A stretch of DNA of 64,000 nt from Candidatus Thorarchaeota archaeon. GTDB taxonomy: Archaea > Asgardarchaeota > Thorarchaeia > Thorarchaeales > Thorarchaeaceae. The stretch spans positions 71,038 to 135,037 of the forward strand of contig CAVSBO010000013.1 in assembly GCA_963726195.1 (NCBI GenBank), read 5' to 3'. Below the pieces are notes generated by a model, which saw nothing but the letters and a program-made list of their open reading frames with translations, searched no databases and was not told the DNA's origin. Positions 26,710-38,511 of this stretch are shown piece after piece. A program made the position numbers and the translations under genes. Numbering within the stretch: the stretch's first letter is position 1; every line of letters starts with the position of its first letter.

Positions 26710-27599
26710 TTAACGCGTTGAACCGCAGTAGGGACATACTCTCGTCCCCTCCCTCAAGCTCCTGCCGCAGGAGAAGCAGAAGTTTCTCCTTGATTCCTCA
26801 CTCCGAGCATCATCTACGAAGGGGCTGAGTTCACCCTGAGCAAACAAGCTCCCCAGGCCTTCGACTGAGTCCCCGGAACAGTTCCGACAAGCAGCGTCCG
26901 AAGACTTGTCGCGGCTGGCGGGTCGCCGCTGATCACTTCGGTTGTCCTGTTCATCATCATCATTGAATGGCCCATTTGTCCGTCCTTCTGAGAATGGGCT
27001 CGTTTGCTGCTCAGAAGGGTAAGTCTGACCGGATGACCAGTGGTCGGAATTACGAGACTGAACTTGGCTAGCTCTGTTTGACTGCAAAGATCTATCTAGG
27101 GTTTCGAAGTCCCCCCTGTAATCATCGGAACCGTGGTCCCAGGCGGGCGACTGCCGGTTACTACTTCCGGATTTCACATCATTTCGCTCATCGTAGTCCT
27201 CATGGGACGACAGTCCTCTTGAGACTTCGACGAACTGAGTGTGAGATTCTGCCTTTAGCCGCTGATAGTCTTCCTGTGTCAAACCGAGCATTTCGAGTGC
27301 TCTGTCTCTGTCGGCGCACCTCTTTGATAGGGGGCAGCAGTATGCTAGACTGGCATGGCAGAGGGACGCCATGGCTCTCTCTTGGCGCGACTTGAATATC
27401 GGTGTGATTCTCCGATTTCCAAACATGAGTGAGTCTCCAACGGCCTTCAGACTGAGTGTATCCACTCTGTGCCAATGCCTCGACAATCTCTTTCGCCGGG
27501 TAGGCCTTGCCTTCTATTATTACGTAGCCTTCTGCCTTGTCTAACTTCACGGGCCGCTCAGTGCCTCTGTCATCGTAGCTATCGTCGTATCTCGTCCAA
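26710..27599 (-). CDS. Cys-cluster (methanogenesis marker 9-like) protein with low-complexity linker and C-terminal zinc ribbon (indels near 27593 and 27455)
   Basis: CHASLAYCCPLSKRCADRDRALEMLGLTQEDYQRLK; C-terminal FCFSCG..CPYCG; SD GAGGTG before TTG at 27599. Confidence 0.55.
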
Positions 27600-28772: not shown

Positions 28773-30203
28773 ATGGACGACAAGCACATCCAGATTCTAA
28801 AGGAATTGGGCTTCAGCGATGTCAGCTCAAAGACAATGACCAATGAGTACTGGAAGAAAAGGGCCGCTGAGGCTCTTGCCATCACGACTCAGGAGAGAGA
28901 CGTTTATGGCTGCCTTGATCATACTCGTGGAGACGGCGTGAGGATTTATGACGTTGAAGGCACAGAGTACCTCGATGTCACGGGTGGAGTCGCAGTTCGT
29001 GCCTTCGGACTGAGATACAAGCCATTCCTGGATTTTGAAGCTAGCATCAGTGATGTTGTGACCGAGTTTCCGGGGATGGATTTTGACGCCATTCCACAGA
29101 CTCTGCTTGCGGAGAGGGTAGCAAAGCTGACTCCGGGCACATTCAAGAAACGGGTCGTTTTTACAACTTCAGGAGCACGCGCTGTTGAGGGCTGTATGAA
29201 ATCAGCAATGGATCTATCTAGTCGGCGCAGATTCGTAGCATTCAGACCTGCGTTTCATGGTCGAACAGGTTATGCACTAGCATTGACTGCCTCGAATTCA
29301 AGGCACAAGTCAGGCTTTCCTCAAGGAGTTGACGTCACTAGGGTCCCTTACCCGTACTGCTATCGCTGTCCTTACGGCCAGCAGGTTGAGAGCTGCAACC
29401 TCGAGTGTGTTGAAGGTCTTAGGTACGCTCTCCAGGTCGAGGGCGACGATGTTGCAATGACCGTGATGGAGCCAATCTGCGGTGAAGGTGGGCTGATTGT
29501 GCCTCCGGCCAAGGCCGTGAAAGGTATGTACGATGTCACGAAAGAGGTCGGTGCCTATTTCATGTCTGATGAAGTGCAGGCCGGAATGGGTCGGACGGGT
29601 AAGTGGTGTGCTATTGAGAACCATAGTGTGGTTCCTGATTTCGTCTCAATCGCCAAGGCGTTGGGCGGTGGGTATCCCGTGGGCGCGTCAATAGGACCTG
29701 CTCCGATGTTCACAGCTGAATCTCGGCACTCGGAGACGTTCTCTGCTGAGCCCAAGCTCTCGTTGCTTGCTCTTTGGATAATCAAGCACATGGAAGATGG
29801 CGGTTTTCTCAAGAAGAATGCAGAGAATGGTGCGTATCTCATGAAGCGTCTCAACGAACTGAAAGACAAGTATGAGGTTGTTGGTGACGTACGCGGAATT
29901 GGCCTGATGGTTGGTGTCGAGTTCGTGAAGAGCAAGAAGACCAAGGAGAAGGCAAAGGAGCTCAGAGACCGCGTTGTCAAGAATGCGGTCCAGAAGCAGA
30001 AGCTCTGGATTCTTGGTGCAGGCCAGAACTGCGTGAGATTCACTCCTAGCTACATCATAACCAAAGCCAATATCGATGATGCTGTCGATAGATTCGGCAA
30101 GGCCATAGCAGCAAGTTCAGCTAGTATGAATAGACTTCCGGAAGAGAGCGGCCAGTTTAGTCTTCAGCGGGCCGCTGCCCTCTTTCCTGAAAGAGATAGG
30201 TGA
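28773..30203 (+). CDS. Class III PLP aminotransferase (GabT/ornithine aminotransferase-like)
   Basis: DVEGTEYLD, SGARAVE, FHGRT, EPICGEGG, DEVQAGMGRTG, AKALGGG, VRGIGLMVGVEF; the last ~30 aa may be read-through from an indel. Confidence 0.9.
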   Translation: MDDKHIQILKELGFSDVSSKTMTNEYWKKRAAEALAITTQERDVYGCLDHTRGDGVRIYDVEGTEYLDVTGGVAVRAFGLRYKPFLDFEASISDVVTEFPGMDFDAIPQTLLAERVAKLTPGTFKKRVVFTTSGARAVEGCMKSAMDLSSRRRFVAFRPAFHGRTGYALALTASNSRHKSGFPQGVDVTRVPYPYCYRCPYGQQVESCNLECVEGLRYALQVEGDDVAMTVMEPICGEGGLIVPPAKAVKGMYDVTKEVGAYFMSDEVQAGMGRTGKWCAIENHSVVPDFVSIAKALGGGYPVGASIGPAPMFTAESRHSETFSAEPKLSLLALWIIKHMEDGGFLKKNAENGAYLMKRLNELKDKYEVVGDVRGIGLMVGVEFVKSKKTKEKAKELRDRVVKNAVQKQKLWILGAGQNCVRFTPSYIITKANIDDAVDRFGKAIAASSASMNRLPEESGQFSLQRAAALFPERDR

Positions 30204-31938: not shown

Positions 31939-33328
31939 ATGAGCGATCCGGTAAGAGACGAAGGTAACTCAGACTTCTATGCAAGGCTGGGAGTCGAACC
32001 GATGGGCAAAGAAGGGCGCACTCATTTCAGCAACGAACTGACGCCGGACATTGCTGGAAAGGATGTCGTGCTAGTCGGATGGGTTCACATACTTCGCGAC
32101 AAAGGTAAGCTCAAGTTCCTCATCCTTAGAGATGAACATGGCACTGCTCAGGTTACAATATCGCAGGAGAAGGTTCCTGTAGATGTGTTTGCCCTTTCCG
32201 GACAGCTAAAACCTGAGTCAGTCATCGCTGTCAAGGGCAGAGTTGTGAAAGCTGGACAGGTCGATAGGGGAGTCGAAGTCGTACCGAGTGGAATACGTTT
32301 GATAAACACTGCAGAGCGGCTTCCTATAGACATTGTCGAGGGAAAGGTCGACATTGACCTGGAGACCCGTCTCAACAACCGCATTCTGGATTTACGAAAG
32401 CCAAGAGTGAGTGCCATTTTCCACGTGCAGCATTGTCTGGTGAAATCGGCTAGAGAGTATCTGCTCAAGAATGGATTCATCGAGATACATACCCCCAAGC
32501 TTGTGGCCGAGGCCACTGAAGGGGGTGCAAACCTCTTTGAAGTCAAGTACTTCGAGAAAAAGGCGTACCTCGCGCAAAGTCCCCAGTTCTACAAGCAGCT
32601 CATGCTTCTAGCAGGATTCGGAAGAGTCTATGAAGTCGGGCCTGTATTTCGGGCTGAAAAACACAACACACGTCGTCACGTCAACGAATACACGTCATTC
32701 GATTTCGAGATGTCTTGGATCAGCGGCGTTGAAGATGTCATGAAGATGGAAGAGAAAATGCTCGAGTACGCGATTAAGCAGACAGTAAAGGAAGCGTCTG
32801 CCGAACTCGAGTTGCTTGGTCTGAAGGTCCAAGTACCCAAGGTGCCATTCAAGAGAATCAAGCATGCTGAAGCGATTGATCTGGTGAACGAGACGGGCAA
32901 GCAGCTGATCTTACGAGGACGACCTTGACCCGGATTGTGAACGAATTCTGGGCGACATCTTTCCGGAGAAGTACGGCACGGACATGGTATTCATAACCCA
33001 TTACCCGCTATCGCTCAGGCCTGCCTATACAATGCCTAGTCTTACTGACGAGGGGAAGACAGAGAGCTTCGACCTTACCTACAAGGGCATGGAGATTACT
33101 ACAGGCGGCCAGCGCATACATCTGTACAATCTTCTGGTTGAACGATTCAAAGAGAAAGGCTTCGACCCGGAGCATTTTGCGTTTTACCTCGACCCGTTCA
33201 GGTATGGAGTTCCCCCGCATGGAGGACTGGGCCTCGGAGTAGAGCGGTTGACGATGCAAGTCCTCGGAATCGAAAATGTGAGGGAAGCCACTCTATTCCC
33301 AAGAGACCGTGACAGACTGACTCCTTAG
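31939..33328 (+). CDS. aspS: Aspartyl-tRNA synthetase, archaeal type (indel near 32908)
   Basis: OB fold GWVH..RD.G, TRLNNRILDLR, YLAQSPQFYKQ, FRAE, GGQR, PPHGG.GLGVERL, LFPRD. Confidence 0.95.
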
Positions 33329-33395: not shown

Positions 33396-34162
33396 ATGTC
33401 AATTCCAAAAAGGTGCCAAACAATGGACGAACCACTGCAATCCGAGCTCTTTGCATCAATCGCTACACTGGACCAGCTCAAGAAAATGTACGACATGGGT
33501 GTTATTGATATCAGATCGTACGAAAGGGAGTCCGAAGCATTGATTGCAGAGGTTCGGAACTGCATCGAACAGATGCGCCGGACCGGCCTCGACATAGGGA
33601 GTTTCGTCGGTCAGGCTCGGAGTATCAGAGTCTTTTCCTGATGCATCAAGCATGTTGGGTCTGCATGGGCGAGCCAATAAGCAACCAATCGGAGGGATGA
33701 CGGCCGATCAGTACTATGACTACATCGGGCTTGCTATCCTTGATGTGGCTACTGCAAACTCGTCGAAGGGTTTGATGGGACTTGCGGAACTCATTGTTGA
33801 GGTCGTTCGGTTGTTGCCGGAGCTGAAGTCTGTCAGCTACAATGACGTGATTGAAGCTGTAAACCGAGTGTTCTCAGCACGGATTGATACCCGGCATCCG
33901 AACGCTCAGGGGAGGAGTCAAGGTCGTTGAGCTACGACCATTGGAGCTCCGCCGTGACCAAGCGGACGTGATCAATGCTGCTGCAACCAAAGGCTACATC
34001 TCCGTGGAAGAGCTCATGATGCAGCTCAAATGGTCCGAAGACCACGCCCGTCAAGTGCTTTCCAGTTTGGTCGACGCTGGTATGGCAGTGGCAGACATAC
34101 GGTTCTCCACAGGCGGTCGTTATTACTTCCCGGGCCTAAGGCCAAGGGATAGTACCGTATAG
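33396..34162 (+). CDS. Vps28-like N-terminal hairpin fused to ESCRT-II Vps22/Vps36 (EAP30) winged helices (indels near 33612 and 33871)
   Basis: SELFASIATLDQLKKMY..GVID..SY...LI (Vps28-like); QYYDYIGLAILDV...GLMGLAEL...VSYNDV..AV...PLEL..DQ..V...KGYISVEEL...LKWS..A..L..L...GMAVAD...YYFPG (EAP30). Confidence 0.75.
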
Positions 34163-34210: not shown

Positions 34211-34924
34211 TCACACCGCTACCACTATCGCGCCTTTCTTGGAGTCCACCCACTTTGCCATTTTCCTGTCAACCATTATCTCCAAGATGCGATGCAAGTC
34301 TCTTTCGGGAAGCTTCGAAAAGTCTTGCGCAGTTTCCTGTACAATGATTGACTGCACGTCCAGACGTAGTTTGCCTGTTTGGATAGCCCAGGCACGTATC
34401 ATATCTGCCCATTCTTCAAGAGGTCGCCAGTACACCCGAAGCTGCCTTCTCTTTTCGTCCAACCACTCGCCAACATCATTCTCAACTAACCAGTCCCCTA
34501 TCAGCCTGAACGCTTCTACCTTTCCAAGTATGTCGCTGAACGGTCTTTCCTTGATGAAGGTCGATACTGACAGAACGTGAATACTCCCAGACTCAGTCCA
34601 TACAATCAGGAACTCGGCCCATTCTTTCTCCCACGATTCTTTGTCTTCTTCTCTGGGTGGGATGCTATACATCCATCCTGACTGTTTTGGGCCGCCCCAA
34701 GATGGCGTAACAAGAACGGTAGCTTGTACGGGTACCGACTCCGGCGCGGATTCAGTCAGAGTAGATTCGAGTCCTTGAGATAGTGAAGTTTCTTCAGCTC
34801 CGGCTTCTACGACATCAACGAGAGCGTTAGTCTTCGTTGTTTCGTCCTCAGCAGAAGCCTCAGTTGCTCGTTTGGGAGCTGCCTTCTGTCGTTCCTTCTC
34901 TTTCCGGCGTTCCTTGACTTCCAA
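34211..34924 (-). CDS. vps25: ESCRT-II Vps25 homologue with disordered N-terminal extension
   Basis: WMYSIPP, W..EW..FL, GEWLD......VYWRPLEEWADMI..W, F..L...L..IL; co-transcribed with vps4. Confidence 0.85.
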   Translation of the reverse strand: MEVKERRKEKERQKAAPKRATEASAEDETTKTNALVDVVEAGAEETSLSQGLESTLTESAPESVPVQATVLVTPSWGGPKQSGWMYSIPPREEDKESWEKEWAEFLIVWTESGSIHVLSVSTFIKERPFSDILGKVEAFRLIGDWLVENDVGEWLDEKRRQLRVYWRPLEEWADMIRAWAIQTGKLRLDVQSIIVQETAQDFSKLPERDLHRILEIMVDRKMAKWVDSKKGAIVVAV

Positions 34925-34927
34925 AAC

Positions 34928-36157
34928 CTAAGATGCCTCCCCCCATTCGATGTACTTCCTTACGTCTTCTGGTGGCGTGCCGGGTCCAATGCTCTCGATG
35001 GCCCGCAGAAAGTCCGCTCTGGAGACCGGGCGGAGTTCGGATACTGTGCCATCACGATCTGTTTCTTCTCCGCGCTGTAAATCCCTTATTGGCTCCATCG
35101 CAGCCTCTCGACATACCACAGTGATGTCCCGGCCACTGTAGCCCTCGGTCAGGTCAGCGAGCTCTTCGAAGTCGACCTCAGAAGACATGCTGACTCCCTC
35201 CATCTGGATTTCGAATATCCTTCTCCTTGAGGCTTTCCCTGGCAGCGGGATAAGGATCTTCTTCTCGAATCTCGACCTAAGAGCGAAATCCAGTTCCCAT
35301 GGAAGGTTCGTAGCGCCAATGACAGTTACCCTTTCGTCAGGTTGGCTTGTGAGTCCCTGTAGTTCTGTCAACAACTGAGTCTTGAGGCGTCTCTCGCCCC
35401 CGACGTCGTGGCCTGTCCTCGAAACGCCCACTGAATCAAGCTCATCCATGAAGATTATAGAAGGCTGATTCTTTCTCGCCATTTCGAATAGAGTCATGAC
35501 GAGCTTCTCAGACTCGCCCAGCCACTTGCTCACTATGTTTGCAGCGGAGACATTGAAGAACGTTGCATGCACTTCAGATGCCACAGCTCTTGCAATGAGG
35601 GTCTTGCCACATCCAGAGGGTCCATAGAACAGGATGCCCTTCCACGGTTGCCTTGATTTTCCTTTGAAGAGTTCAGGGTGCTTCATTGGTGTTATTATGG
35701 CTTCTTGGATTGCTTGCTTCGCGTCTTCCAGTCCCGCAACCTCAGACATTTTCGAGTCGGGCCGTTGGGCGATGATTGTGTCAGCGATAATTCCCTGAAG
35801 GTATCTCGCATCTTCATTATCATCATCTGTTTCCTGAAATCCTCGACTGGCTGAAGTCGGTTCGCGTCTCTCAACTGGACGTGTGGCAGGCTTGCTTGGA
35901 ACTGACGGTCGGTCTACCTGTCTCGTCTTGATGCCTGAGATGTATCTTACCCGATCCACGCACTCTTCGGCCCTGCTCAGGTAGTGTTTCTGCAATGACG
36001 GAAGGGATGAGGAATTGGAGAGCCTGATGAGTATCATGCTCACTTTGAGATAATAATGAGATGCCTCTTTCTGCAGTCCCTTCCTGTCGAGCTCTATGGC
36101 CTTTTCGAGTAGAGCCTTGACTCCGAGGTCAAGGCGGTCCGCGTCTGTTCCTGACAT
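34928..36157 (-). CDS. vps4: Vps4 AAA+ ATPase with N-terminal MIT domain
   Basis: MIT (KAIELD...A..YY...YLSRAE); VAGLEDAKQAIQEAII.P, PWKGILFYGPSGCGKT, SKWLGESEK, FMDELD, GATNLPWELD, EGYSG.DI. Confidence 0.93.
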   Translation of the reverse strand: MSGTDADRLDLGVKALLEKAIELDRKGLQKEASHYYLKVSMILIRLSNSSSLPSLQKHYLSRAEECVDRVRYISGIKTRQVDRPSVPSKPATRPVERREPTSASRGFQETDDDNEDARYLQGIIADTIIAQRPDSKMSEVAGLEDAKQAIQEAIITPMKHPELFKGKSRQPWKGILFYGPSGCGKTLIARAVASEVHATFFNVSAANIVSKWLGESEKLVMTLFEMARKNQPSIIFMDELDSVGVSRTGHDVGGERRLKTQLLTELQGLTSQPDERVTVIGATNLPWELDFALRSRFEKKILIPLPGKASRRRIFEIQMEGVSMSSEVDFEELADLTEGYSGRDITVVCREAAMEPIRDLQRGEETDRDGTVSELRPVSRADFLRAIESIGPGTPPEDVRKYIEWGEAS

Positions 36158-36305: not shown

Positions 36306-36938
36306 TTGGACATGGTGAGGTCGTTGGGTACGGCGAAGAAGGCTATGACTTGGGGCCGCAGAAAGCCAGACGTCGCAGAGGTGACCAGTCAGCTAAGAAT
36401 CTTGGGCAAGGAGCTCGAGCGAGAAAGAAACCGGCTCGAGAAGCAGGAAGTTGAAACCAAGACAAGGGCTGTGCGAGCCCGAAAGGATGGCCACATGGAT
36501 GGTTACAAGACTTACGCAACAGAGATGATACGCTTTAGGAAATCCGCCTTGTCTATTGACAAATCGCGGCTTCATCTTCTGAGGTTTCTTTCATCCATCA
36601 TTCACGCTCAGTCCGCTGCCAAGACAAACTTGGTTGTTGAAAAGGTCGCCAAGATTCTGGGGCTTTTTGTTGATGCCAGAGACTCTGCCAAGCTTGTTCG
36701 GAACCTCGACGAAATCACTCGACGGTTGGACGCGATCGAAATCGAGGGGTCCATATCGGACGAGACCTTCGACTCTATGAAAGACAGCAAGGTGACATCG
36801 GAGGAGCTAGCCGCAGCAATGCAGGAAATTGACGCGGCGGCTGGTGCTGAGGAAGCTGCTTCTCGGGCGGGCCCCGCTACCGAGGCTGAGAGACTCGAAG
36901 AGGAGATCAAGTCGCTAGAGAAGGAGCTGGGAGTTTAG
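36306..36938 (+). CDS. ESCRT-III subunit (Vps2/24/46, CHMP1-like class)
   Basis: Basic N-terminal helices (LERERNRLEKQE..K..A..A.KDG..D..K.YA.EMIR.RK), acidic C-half, MIM1-like ERLEEEIKSL tail; divergent from vps4. Confidence 0.85.
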   Translation: MDMVRSLGTAKKAMTWGRRKPDVAEVTSQLRILGKELERERNRLEKQEVETKTRAVRARKDGHMDGYKTYATEMIRFRKSALSIDKSRLHLLRFLSSIIHAQSAAKTNLVVEKVAKILGLFVDARDSAKLVRNLDEITRRLDAIEIEGSISDETFDSMKDSKVTSEELAAAMQEIDAAAGAEEAASRAGPATEAERLEEEIKSLEKELGV

Positions 36939-36939
36939 T

Positions 36940-38511
36940 CTAGCGCCCTAAGCCTTGACTTCTCCCAGAAGCCGTATCCAGTCGTTTTCTTGTCTCAAAT
37001 GAGTCTCGCATCAGCCCCTTGTATCGTCTAATGAAGTCCTCGGGGACCAACTGACCATTCCTCAACAGACGAACCGTTTCTTTTGCGGCATCGTCGATTG
37101 CCATAGCATCTCTTCTGAGTCCTATCATCTCGGAAGAGTCAGGGGCCTTCGAAGGTACTCCATCTGCACCGAACAAGCCACCCAAGTCTGGGCCAATCCT
37201 ATCACGGTATTGCATAGGCAACGTTCGTGCATCATTGCCTGCAATGCCTCCGAAGGGGTAGTAGGAAGATGATCTTTGGTCGAATGTTCTGTATGCTCCA
37301 GATGACATTGACCCAGCTTCTGGTTTTCCACCCGCATAGAGCAGGGAATAAGCAAGTTCCTCAACCTTTAGCCTAACGTCACTGATGTTCACATCGGTCT
37401 GTCCAAGTTTTCTTGTTCGCTGTAGGTCTGATTGCATGTACTTGTCGAAACTCTTGGCAATCTCCACGTAGTCTGGGAGAACACTCTCAGTTTGCTCACT
37501 ACATGATATCTTGATGTCCCCCTGTTTCATTCTGAGGACTACCCTTCTCCTCAGCCTGCCATCTTCCTCGATGCTCTTCATGTATGCTAGAGGAACATCA
37601 AACACGATGTCTGTCTTCTTACGCAATCTTCCGGTTTCAGCTATGAAGACGAATCTCTTGTTGGTAATGTATAGGGTTCCATTTGCCTTGTCATTCTTCA
37701 CGAAGTCGCTGCCTGCAATCCTTATGTCTGGAAGAGCACACACCGGCAACTCGTTGACAGATAGTTCGGCAGTCTCATAGAAACCCGAGAATTGCTTCCT
37801 GTAATAATCCAGTCCGTCCAGCTGTTGTTCGATGTCTACCAGACTCAGTCTCGACTCCTCGATTGCATCGTCGACGTTCTTCTTGTACTGGCCGACGAGT
37901 TGAGTGACTCGATTCGTGACGCCGCCCACGAAGGGGAATTGATCAGCTGACCAAGCGGCGGAATCAAGGAGTCCCTTTGTTTCGGCAACCATTTGCCTTG
38001 AGACTATCTCCGCCTGACTTGTGACTCTGTTCTTGATAGCTGGGAGTTCCATCTCAATGTTCTCAATCTTCTCCTCAAGCCAGCGATAGTGGAGAAAGTT
38101 TGCCATTCTCAGAGAAACCAGAAGTCTCTTGGCTGAGGTCAGTTGATTGGTGAAGTCCCGCAAGCGTGTGTATCCATAGTGGAGAGTCATTATTGCTCGG
38201 CGCAGGTCTTGAGCAAGTGCCTTCCTTTTCTCCTCGATAGGTGTCGTGCGTGTGGAGTGGCACCTAGGGCAGATTTCTTCTAGTCGCTTGCCAACACTGA
38301 GCTCGTGAGAGCCACATTCTGGGCATTTCTCAAACTTCTCGCCTGGCGCGGGCGTTCCAAGGCCGTGATGACAATTGCTGCAGACGTAGTGTTCGCTTGA
38401 CTTGGTCTTCAGGCAATCCAAGCACAGTACTTCTCCACAATCCTCACAGAGGTGCGTCGCTCTGTTCGCCTTGCAGACTTTGCATAGATGGGTAGACGGT
38501 TCGTTGCTCAA
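36940..38511 (-). CDS. Zn-finger + coiled-coil + PH/GRAM-like + Vps23 steadiness-box protein (ESCRT-I-like)
   Basis: Six CxxC pairs; GTLYITNKRFVF..VPL..MKSIE (PH/GRAM); C-terminal AIDDA.....LLRNGQL..EDFIRRYK.L.R..F (steadiness box); SD GGAGG before TTG at 38511. Confidence 0.7.
   Translation of the reverse strand: MSNEPSTHLCKVCKANRATHLCEDCGEVLCLDCLKTKSSEHYVCSNCHHGLGTPAPGEKFEKCPECGSHELSVGKRLEEICPRCHSTRTTPIEEKRKALAQDLRRAIMTLHYGYTRLRDFTNQLTSAKRLLVSLRMANFLHYRWLEEKIENIEMELPAIKNRVTSQAEIVSRQMVAETKGLLDSAAWSADQFPFVGGVTNRVTQLVGQYKKNVDDAIEESRLSLVDIEQQLDGLDYYRKQFSGFYETAELSVNELPVCALPDIRIAGSDFVKNDKANGTLYITNKRFVFIAETGRLRKKTDIVFDVPLAYMKSIEEDGRLRRRVVLRMKQGDIKISCSEQTESVLPDYVEIAKSFDKYMQSDLQRTRKLGQTDVNISDVRLKVEELAYSLLYAGGKPEAGSMSSGAYRTFDQRSSSYYPFGGIAGNDARTLPMQYRDRIGPDLGGLFGADGVPSKAPDSSEMIGLRRDAMAIDDAAKETVRLLRNGQLVPEDFIRRYKGLMRDSFETRKRLDTASGRSQGLGR

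Follow-up and report, generated by a model that had tools for sequence, protein, structure and literature searches.

Three consecutive open reading frames on the + strand of the window (the whole 64,000-nt stretch of DNA analysed here, to which plain positions refer) are very likely the pieces of one gene, a Thorarchaeal 'Vps22' in which the N-terminal helices have been replaced by the N-terminal domain of Vps28, and the frameshifts between them single-base insertion errors. The SB (steadiness box)-Vps22 fusion architecture of Thorarchaeota has already been published (Makarova et al., 2024, mBio, PMC10936438, text and Table S3).

Structure of the Fusion Gene

The three frames span 33396-33641, 33652-33930 and 33884-34162, and in the ORF listing of the window each is shifted by +1 relative to the preceding one. 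Reading through both extra-base sites gives a protein of 245 residues without any further defect. The read-through sequence (P0001) is valid for residues 1–242. Translation most likely begins with ATG 33423 (MDEPLQ...) instead of 33396, because the frame of the congener G002 has a stop codon just upstream and the orthologues all begin seven residues before the conserved ELYASIATLDQLKK motif. The initial annotation had already restored a single protein (~255 aa) by removing two bases, which agrees with our result. It placed the second break exactly, at 33871, while its position for the first (33612) was about 8 nt too early. The gene is composed as follows.

33423..34162, + strand: whole SB(Vps28-N)-Vps22 gene, 245 codons plus stop, with two extra bases inside that are almost certainly spurious; read-through 98% identical to the intact public protein P0002; intact orthologues have 245–267 aa
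33423..33663, + strand: Vps28 N-terminal-like domain (steadiness-box hairpin and FPDA helix), residues 1–80; from hhalign, PDB matches and the AF2 model
33619..33620, + strand: first of the extra bases; GG in the window where contig L058 (99.46% identical) has one G; equivalent position in the alignment to congener G002, 33622
33664..33702, + strand: variable linker, residues 81–93; pLDDT below 50 at residues 82–90, alignment columns poorly conserved
33703..33940, + strand: leading helix and first winged helix, residues 94–172; EAP30 profile from position 83 on, hhalign against Asgard Vps22, AF2 secondary structure
33871..33872, + strand: second of the extra bases; TT in the window, single T in relatives
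33941..34138, + strand: second winged helix, residues 173–238; EAP30 positions 151–218, 28.7 bits; best Foldseek matches human and yeast Vps22

One Gene in Related Genomes

The first and last pieces were searched in 41 genomes, the source genome and 40 relatives. The same family is represented by 24 genomes, most of which have the N- and C-terminal matches within a single open frame of 246–320 aa; contig-end fragments and one genome that gave no match to the N-terminal piece are the exceptions. A sister family from the same order likewise has a single open frame, which in G025 encodes 265 aa. When a large protein collection was searched, full-length proteins of 245–277 aa were found in more than 120 clusters. 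Those that are named are mostly 'Candidatus Thorarchaeota archaeon' hypothetical proteins or 'EAP30/Vps36 family' proteins, and the full-length matches include the orthologues from Thorarchaeota AB_25 (OLS30571.1) and SMTZ1-45, both in one 90% cluster. The genome searches and the contig L058 described below thus bear out the initial annotation in treating the pieces as one gene rather than several: relatives encode a single ORF and not two separate genes.

Origin of the Frameshifts

A public contig that is independent of the window's assembly (L058; Logan, SRR18214449) could be aligned to the window across 9.9 kb with 99.46% identity, 53 substitutions and five 1-nt indels. Relative to this contig, the window has extra bases at 27451 (A), 32907 (G, in AspRS), 33619 (G) and 33871 (T), and lacks one base, a C at 30116, where an aminotransferase gene is close to its 3′ end. 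The fusion gene is an intact ORF of 245 aa in L058, with 98% identity between its protein and the read-through of the window, and the AspRS gene is an intact ORF of 462 aa. Comparison with the congener G002 over ~55 kb revealed five net frameshifts in four genes, every one of them a +1 single-base insertion in the window. The neighbouring AspRS gene is organised as follows.

31939..33328, + strand: AspRS gene in two frames, with an extra G at 32907/32908; intact with 462 aa in L058 and 463 aa in G002

Since this neighbour is split in the same way, the breaks appear to be a property of the assembly and not a feature of the ESCRT gene. Two more genes are broken by single-base insertions relative to G002, at ~15314 and ~45556, and their G002 orthologues have 710 and 283 aa, respectively. 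Elsewhere in the genome, a class-II aaRS paralogue with ~31–35% identity to AspRS (G000:C3:32631-33912) is also split in two frames (3 to 1, +1).

The dN/dS of the fusion gene relative to G002 is 0.04 overall, 0.07 after the first break and 0.007 after the second, with dS near 1.1. The low values downstream of the breaks (0.007–0.07) indicate that the restored frame has been kept by selection. The completeness of the genome is 88.9% although it consists of only 19 contigs, which would fit many markers being broken by indels. Genome-wide, ORF junctions of +1 type number 420 vs. 351 of −1 type, a modest excess that is confounded by natural gene overlaps.

The two breaks are almost certainly assembly errors, as judged from the intact fusion ORF and intact AspRS in L058, the more than 120 clusters of full-length proteins and the overall dN/dS. 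That the frameshifts are real seems unlikely. They would then mark either a freshly inactivated ESCRT-II pseudogene, or a stand-alone Vps28-N mini-protein of 81 aa expressed together with the remaining fragments. The stops are indeed present in the sequence as given, and one of the five indels relative to L058 is a deletion, so that the indels are of mixed kind. Yet the essential AspRS next door is split alike, and the sole other match to it, the one on C3, is distant and itself split. As many as five 1-nt indels accompany only 53 substitutions in 9.9 kb against the near-identical contig, and both the purifying dN/dS values beyond the breaks and the low completeness despite few contigs point the same way. 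Programmed ribosomal frameshifting that restores the protein at both sites would account for two shifts in one direction, both being +1, but it is an extremely improbable explanation, as the shifted sites have no sequence motif in common and are missing from L058 and from all relatives.

The assembly appears to carry frequent single-base insertions: in the one region for which a near-identical contig was available, about five 1-nt indels were counted per 10 kb. Caution is therefore advisable wherever 'split' or 'fused' genes are described for this genome. A large protein with C-terminal EAP30-like winged helices (G000:C3:709778-711847; L039 2279-4348, − strand) has a frame of 689 aa vs. 777–878 aa in relatives of the family, and the frame that overlaps it on the upstream side (L039 4140-4658) hints at a further +1 frameshift. 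This protein may be a relative of cog.002441, the second Asgard-specific wH family of Makarova et al.

The N-Terminal Domain Is of Vps28 Type

The first piece matches positions 2–59 of the Pfam VPS28 profile (E 5e-4), with a score of 20.3 bits that lies under the cut-off of 24.5. The orthologue in G025 scores 26.9 bits, above the cut-off, and has a weak match to Vps23_core as well. Profile-profile comparison by hhalign of the N-domain alignment against nine stand-alone Asgard Vps28 proteins gave 99.1% (E 9e-19, 36% identity over 80 columns), with residues 4–83 aligned to Vps28 residues 20–99, including the ELYAxIATLD helix and the FP.A motif. As a control, the N-domain was compared with the corresponding helices of nine Asgard Vps22 proteins; the value of 0.08% means that there is no similarity. 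In a profile search of the PDB, the top four matches were all N-domains of yeast Vps28 from the ESCRT-I core (2F6M, 2P22, 2F66, and 2CAZ; E 0.007–0.013).

The AF2 model of the G002 orthologue (pLDDT 79) has the two hairpin helices at residues 3–24 and 30–54, followed by short helices up to residue 78. A linker of low confidence (residues 82–90) leads on to a further helix and two winged helices. The C-terminal four-helix bundle of Vps28 is absent from the fusion protein: the Pfam match covers profile positions 2–61 of 188, and the remainder is made up of winged helices.

Helical hairpins are simple folds, and the Vps28 likeness might in principle be compositional, the region being no more than a generic helical hairpin or coiled coil. 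The sub-threshold Pfam match of the window piece would agree with this, as would the weak VPS28 match (E 0.016) of a coiled-coil protein (411 aa) from this genome. We consider this explanation very improbable in view of the profile-profile result with its common ELYAxIATLD and FP.A motifs, the near-zero control against Vps22 N-termini and the PDB search with Vps28 in all top four places. An HHpred value of 99% has also been published for the corresponding domain (PMC10936438 Table S3), where residues 1–70 of the Thorarchaeota Vps22 KXH75178.1 are assigned to PF03997 (VPS28 N-terminal domain, SB).

The C-Terminal Part Consists of Vps22 Winged Helices

Pfam analysis assigned EAP30 positions 83–146 to the second piece and positions 151–218 to the third, the latter with 28.7 bits and thus over the cut-off of 26.8. 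The intact orthologue of G002 covers positions 83–218 with 49.6 bits. When the full-length protein was compared with Asgard Vps22 by hhalign, the match reached 99.9% and was limited to residues 97–243. The best Foldseek match was human EAP30/Vps22 (3CUQ_A, 2e-9), along with 2ZME_A and yeast Vps22 (1U5T_A), and Vps36 ranked below these.

The N-terminal helical region of Vps22 (profile positions ~1–82) is absent, as the Thorarchaeal match begins at position 83 vs. 6–215 for the Vps22 of G030 from another Asgard family. No GLUE domain is found in the fusion protein. It is therefore a Vps28 N-domain joined to a Vps22 winged-helix core, without the Vps28 C-terminal bundle, the Vps22 N-terminal helices or GLUE.

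This domain order is the one that the initial annotation had proposed. It described a Vps28-like N-terminal hairpin reaching through the FPDA motif, a short linker and tandem EAP30 winged helices, with the N-terminal helix of Vps22 and the GLUE domain of Vps36 missing. Each of these elements was recovered here: the hairpin by hhalign and the PDB search, with strong profile-level similarity to Vps28; the linker by the low-confidence residues of the model; the winged helices by EAP30, hhalign and Foldseek; and the absence of the Vps22 helices by the late start of the EAP30 match, a GLUE domain being absent as well.

Distribution and Origin of the Fusion

Among the 14 Asgard families sampled, the Vps28-type head on Vps22 was observed only in the Thorarchaeal order, a restriction that refines the published picture. 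In the eight other families sampled for this comparison, the N-domain query instead matches bona fide full-length Vps28 proteins of 207–297 aa or, in one case (G028), a UEV-Vps23-Vps28 fusion of 489 aa. This frame (L033 610-2076) has a UEV/Vps23-like N-terminus and a full Vps28 match, and resembles the published fusion of Heimdallarchaeota.

UEV-Vps23, Vps28 and Vps22 are encoded by adjacent co-directional genes in other Asgard families. For seven of these genomes the sequence beyond the Vps28 gene was available, and there a separate Vps22 gene of ~250 aa follows immediately in the same direction. The boundaries of the fusion fall near residue 100 in both Vps28 and Vps22. Gene order and domain boundaries fit a single event, probably a deletion that joined a vps28 gene to the vps22 gene following it in the same direction. 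Such a deletion would remove the C-terminal bundle of Vps28 and the N-terminal helices of Vps22.

A search of the genome with PF03997 for a separate Vps28 found just the fusion gene and a weak match in a 411-aa protein, and across the family's 24 genomes the same query gave no above-threshold match to a full-length Vps28. The 411-aa protein, a coiled-coil protein (C3:845459-846694; L038 960-2195, − strand), was considered as a candidate Vps28 (E 0.006–0.016, profile positions 10–185) and rejected, its match being probably compositional and a very divergent Vps28-like protein the less likely reading. Similar weak VPS28 matches occur in proteins of ~415–450 aa in several relatives.

Neighboring ESCRT Genes and a Predicted Partner

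The genes next to the fusion gene encode further ESCRT components.

34211..34924, − strand: Vps25 (ESCRT-II); PF05871, E 6e-12
34928..36157, − strand: Vps4 AAA ATPase; AAA and AAA_lid_3, weak MIT and Vps4_C matches
36306..36938, + strand: ESCRT-III (Snf7 family); PF03357, 30.7 bits
36940..38637, − strand: Znr_PH_CC_SB protein (zinc ribbons, GRAM/PH-like, coiled coil, C-terminal steadiness box); Pfam hints

The Vps25 gene is convergent with the fusion gene and only 49 nt downstream of it. The open frame of the Znr_PH_CC_SB protein, a family described in PMC10936438, is 565–576 aa long in the window vs. 518–573 aa in relatives, and its start had previously been annotated at 38511. Its C-terminus was matched in 16 out of 16 genomes of the family searched, and wherever both coordinates are comparable the gene shares a contig with the fusion gene, ~3 kb apart. 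The C-terminal hairpin is strongly conserved in the alignment.

A complex of the fused N-domain with the C-terminal 85 residues of Znr_PH_CC_SB (36943-37197) was predicted from the proteins of the congener G002 with custom alignments. The prediction reached an ipSAE of 0.77, vs. 0.01 for the best of three controls. The mark applied to ipSAE is reached by 58 of 80 solved complexes and by 2 of 110 mismatched pairs. At least 98% of the contacts recur between runs, and the pLDDT of the partner is at least 72. The predicted interface involves residues 3–40 of the fusion protein and residues 42–71 of the partner, which are the most conserved parts of each chain. On the partner side it is formed by a conserved LVPEDFIRRY(K/R)xLMRD helix.

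Because the solved Vps23-Vps28 headpiece is similar, the pass speaks for likeness and is no proof of binding. It may reflect resemblance to that headpiece and not binding of this particular copy. We found no report of this specific interface in the literature consulted. The predicted hairpin-Znr_PH_CC_SB interface represents a testable addition.

A Possible Merged ESCRT-I/II Assembly

In the eukaryotic ESCRT-I headpiece, Vps28 packs against Vps23, and the C-terminal four-helix bundle of Vps28 contacts ESCRT-II. The fused Vps28-type hairpin of the Thorarchaeal protein might pack in a similar way on the C-terminal steadiness box of the adjacent Znr_PH_CC_SB, as Vps28 does on Vps23, and the peptide linker would stand in for the non-covalent contact between the Vps28 CTD and Vps36 of eukaryotes. 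Together with the neighbouring Vps25, the two winged helices would form the core of ESCRT-II, and Vps25 in turn would recruit ESCRT-III and Vps4. The outcome would be a UEV-free, merged ESCRT-I/II assembly in which a chain could run from Znr_PH_CC_SB at the membrane or cargo end over SB-Vps22 and Vps25 to ESCRT-III and Vps4. A 'covalent ESCRT-I to ESCRT-II bridge', as the initial annotation put it, would be a reasonable reading of the function.

The Thorarchaeal lineage has been reported without ubiquitin and UEV-Vps23. A fuller proposal is that Thorarchaeia have a ubiquitin- and UEV-independent merged ESCRT-I/II complex, in which the hairpin and the membrane adaptor Znr_PH_CC_SB form a headpiece-like bundle, and that the fusion was a single event at the root of the order, caused by loss of the sequence between neighbouring vps28 and vps22. 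We regard this combined proposal as evenly poised between right and wrong. The fusion bears on the modular assembly of the eukaryotic sorting pathway, a point already made in the literature.

Comparison With Known Systems

Asgard proteins of the Vps22 family (cog.002769) fused to SB have been described by Makarova et al. (2024). The Thorarchaeota Vps22# of this asCOG has the same organisation as the protein studied here, with SB or Vps28 N-domain (residues 1–70) followed by two winged helices, and it has the same neighborhood of SB protein, ESCRT-III, Vps4, Vps25 and Vps22. The window copy shows no biological difference from it but carries two extra bases that apparently derive from the assembly. 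The orthologues ThorAB25_09030 ('Vps22') and ThorAB25_08990 ('SB') were used in yeast two-hybrid assays by Hatano et al. (2022, PMC9192718), who reported self-interaction of Thorarchaeal Vps22 and the lack of ubiquitin genes in Thorarchaeota. As to two-hybrid interaction between the Thorarchaeal SB protein and Vps22, the wording of that paper is ambiguous. The sequence of ThorAB25_09030 in their supplement contains the same motifs as the fusion protein.

The fusion protein has the tandem winged helices (EAP30 83–218; Foldseek E 2e-9) and the adjacency to Vps25 in common with the Vps22/EAP30 of eukaryotes and other Asgard archaea (PF04157; 3CUQ_A and 1U5T_A). Canonical Vps22 and Vps36 have an N-terminal helical region (profile positions 1–82), whereas the fusion has a Vps28-type hairpin at this place. 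This N-terminal hairpin, including the FP.A helix, is homologous to that of Vps28 (PF03997; yeast ESCRT-I core 2F66, 2F6M, 2P22, and 2CAZ). Where Vps28 continues into its C-terminal four-helix bundle, the hairpin of the fusion is instead tied directly, through the peptide chain, to the winged helices of Vps22. The UEV-Vps23-Vps28 fusion of Heimdallarchaeota (Hatano et al., 2022) likewise combines Asgard ESCRT-I modules in one chain. The Heimdallarchaeotal protein stays within ESCRT-I and keeps the UEV, whereas the Thorarchaeal one joins ESCRT-I to ESCRT-II.
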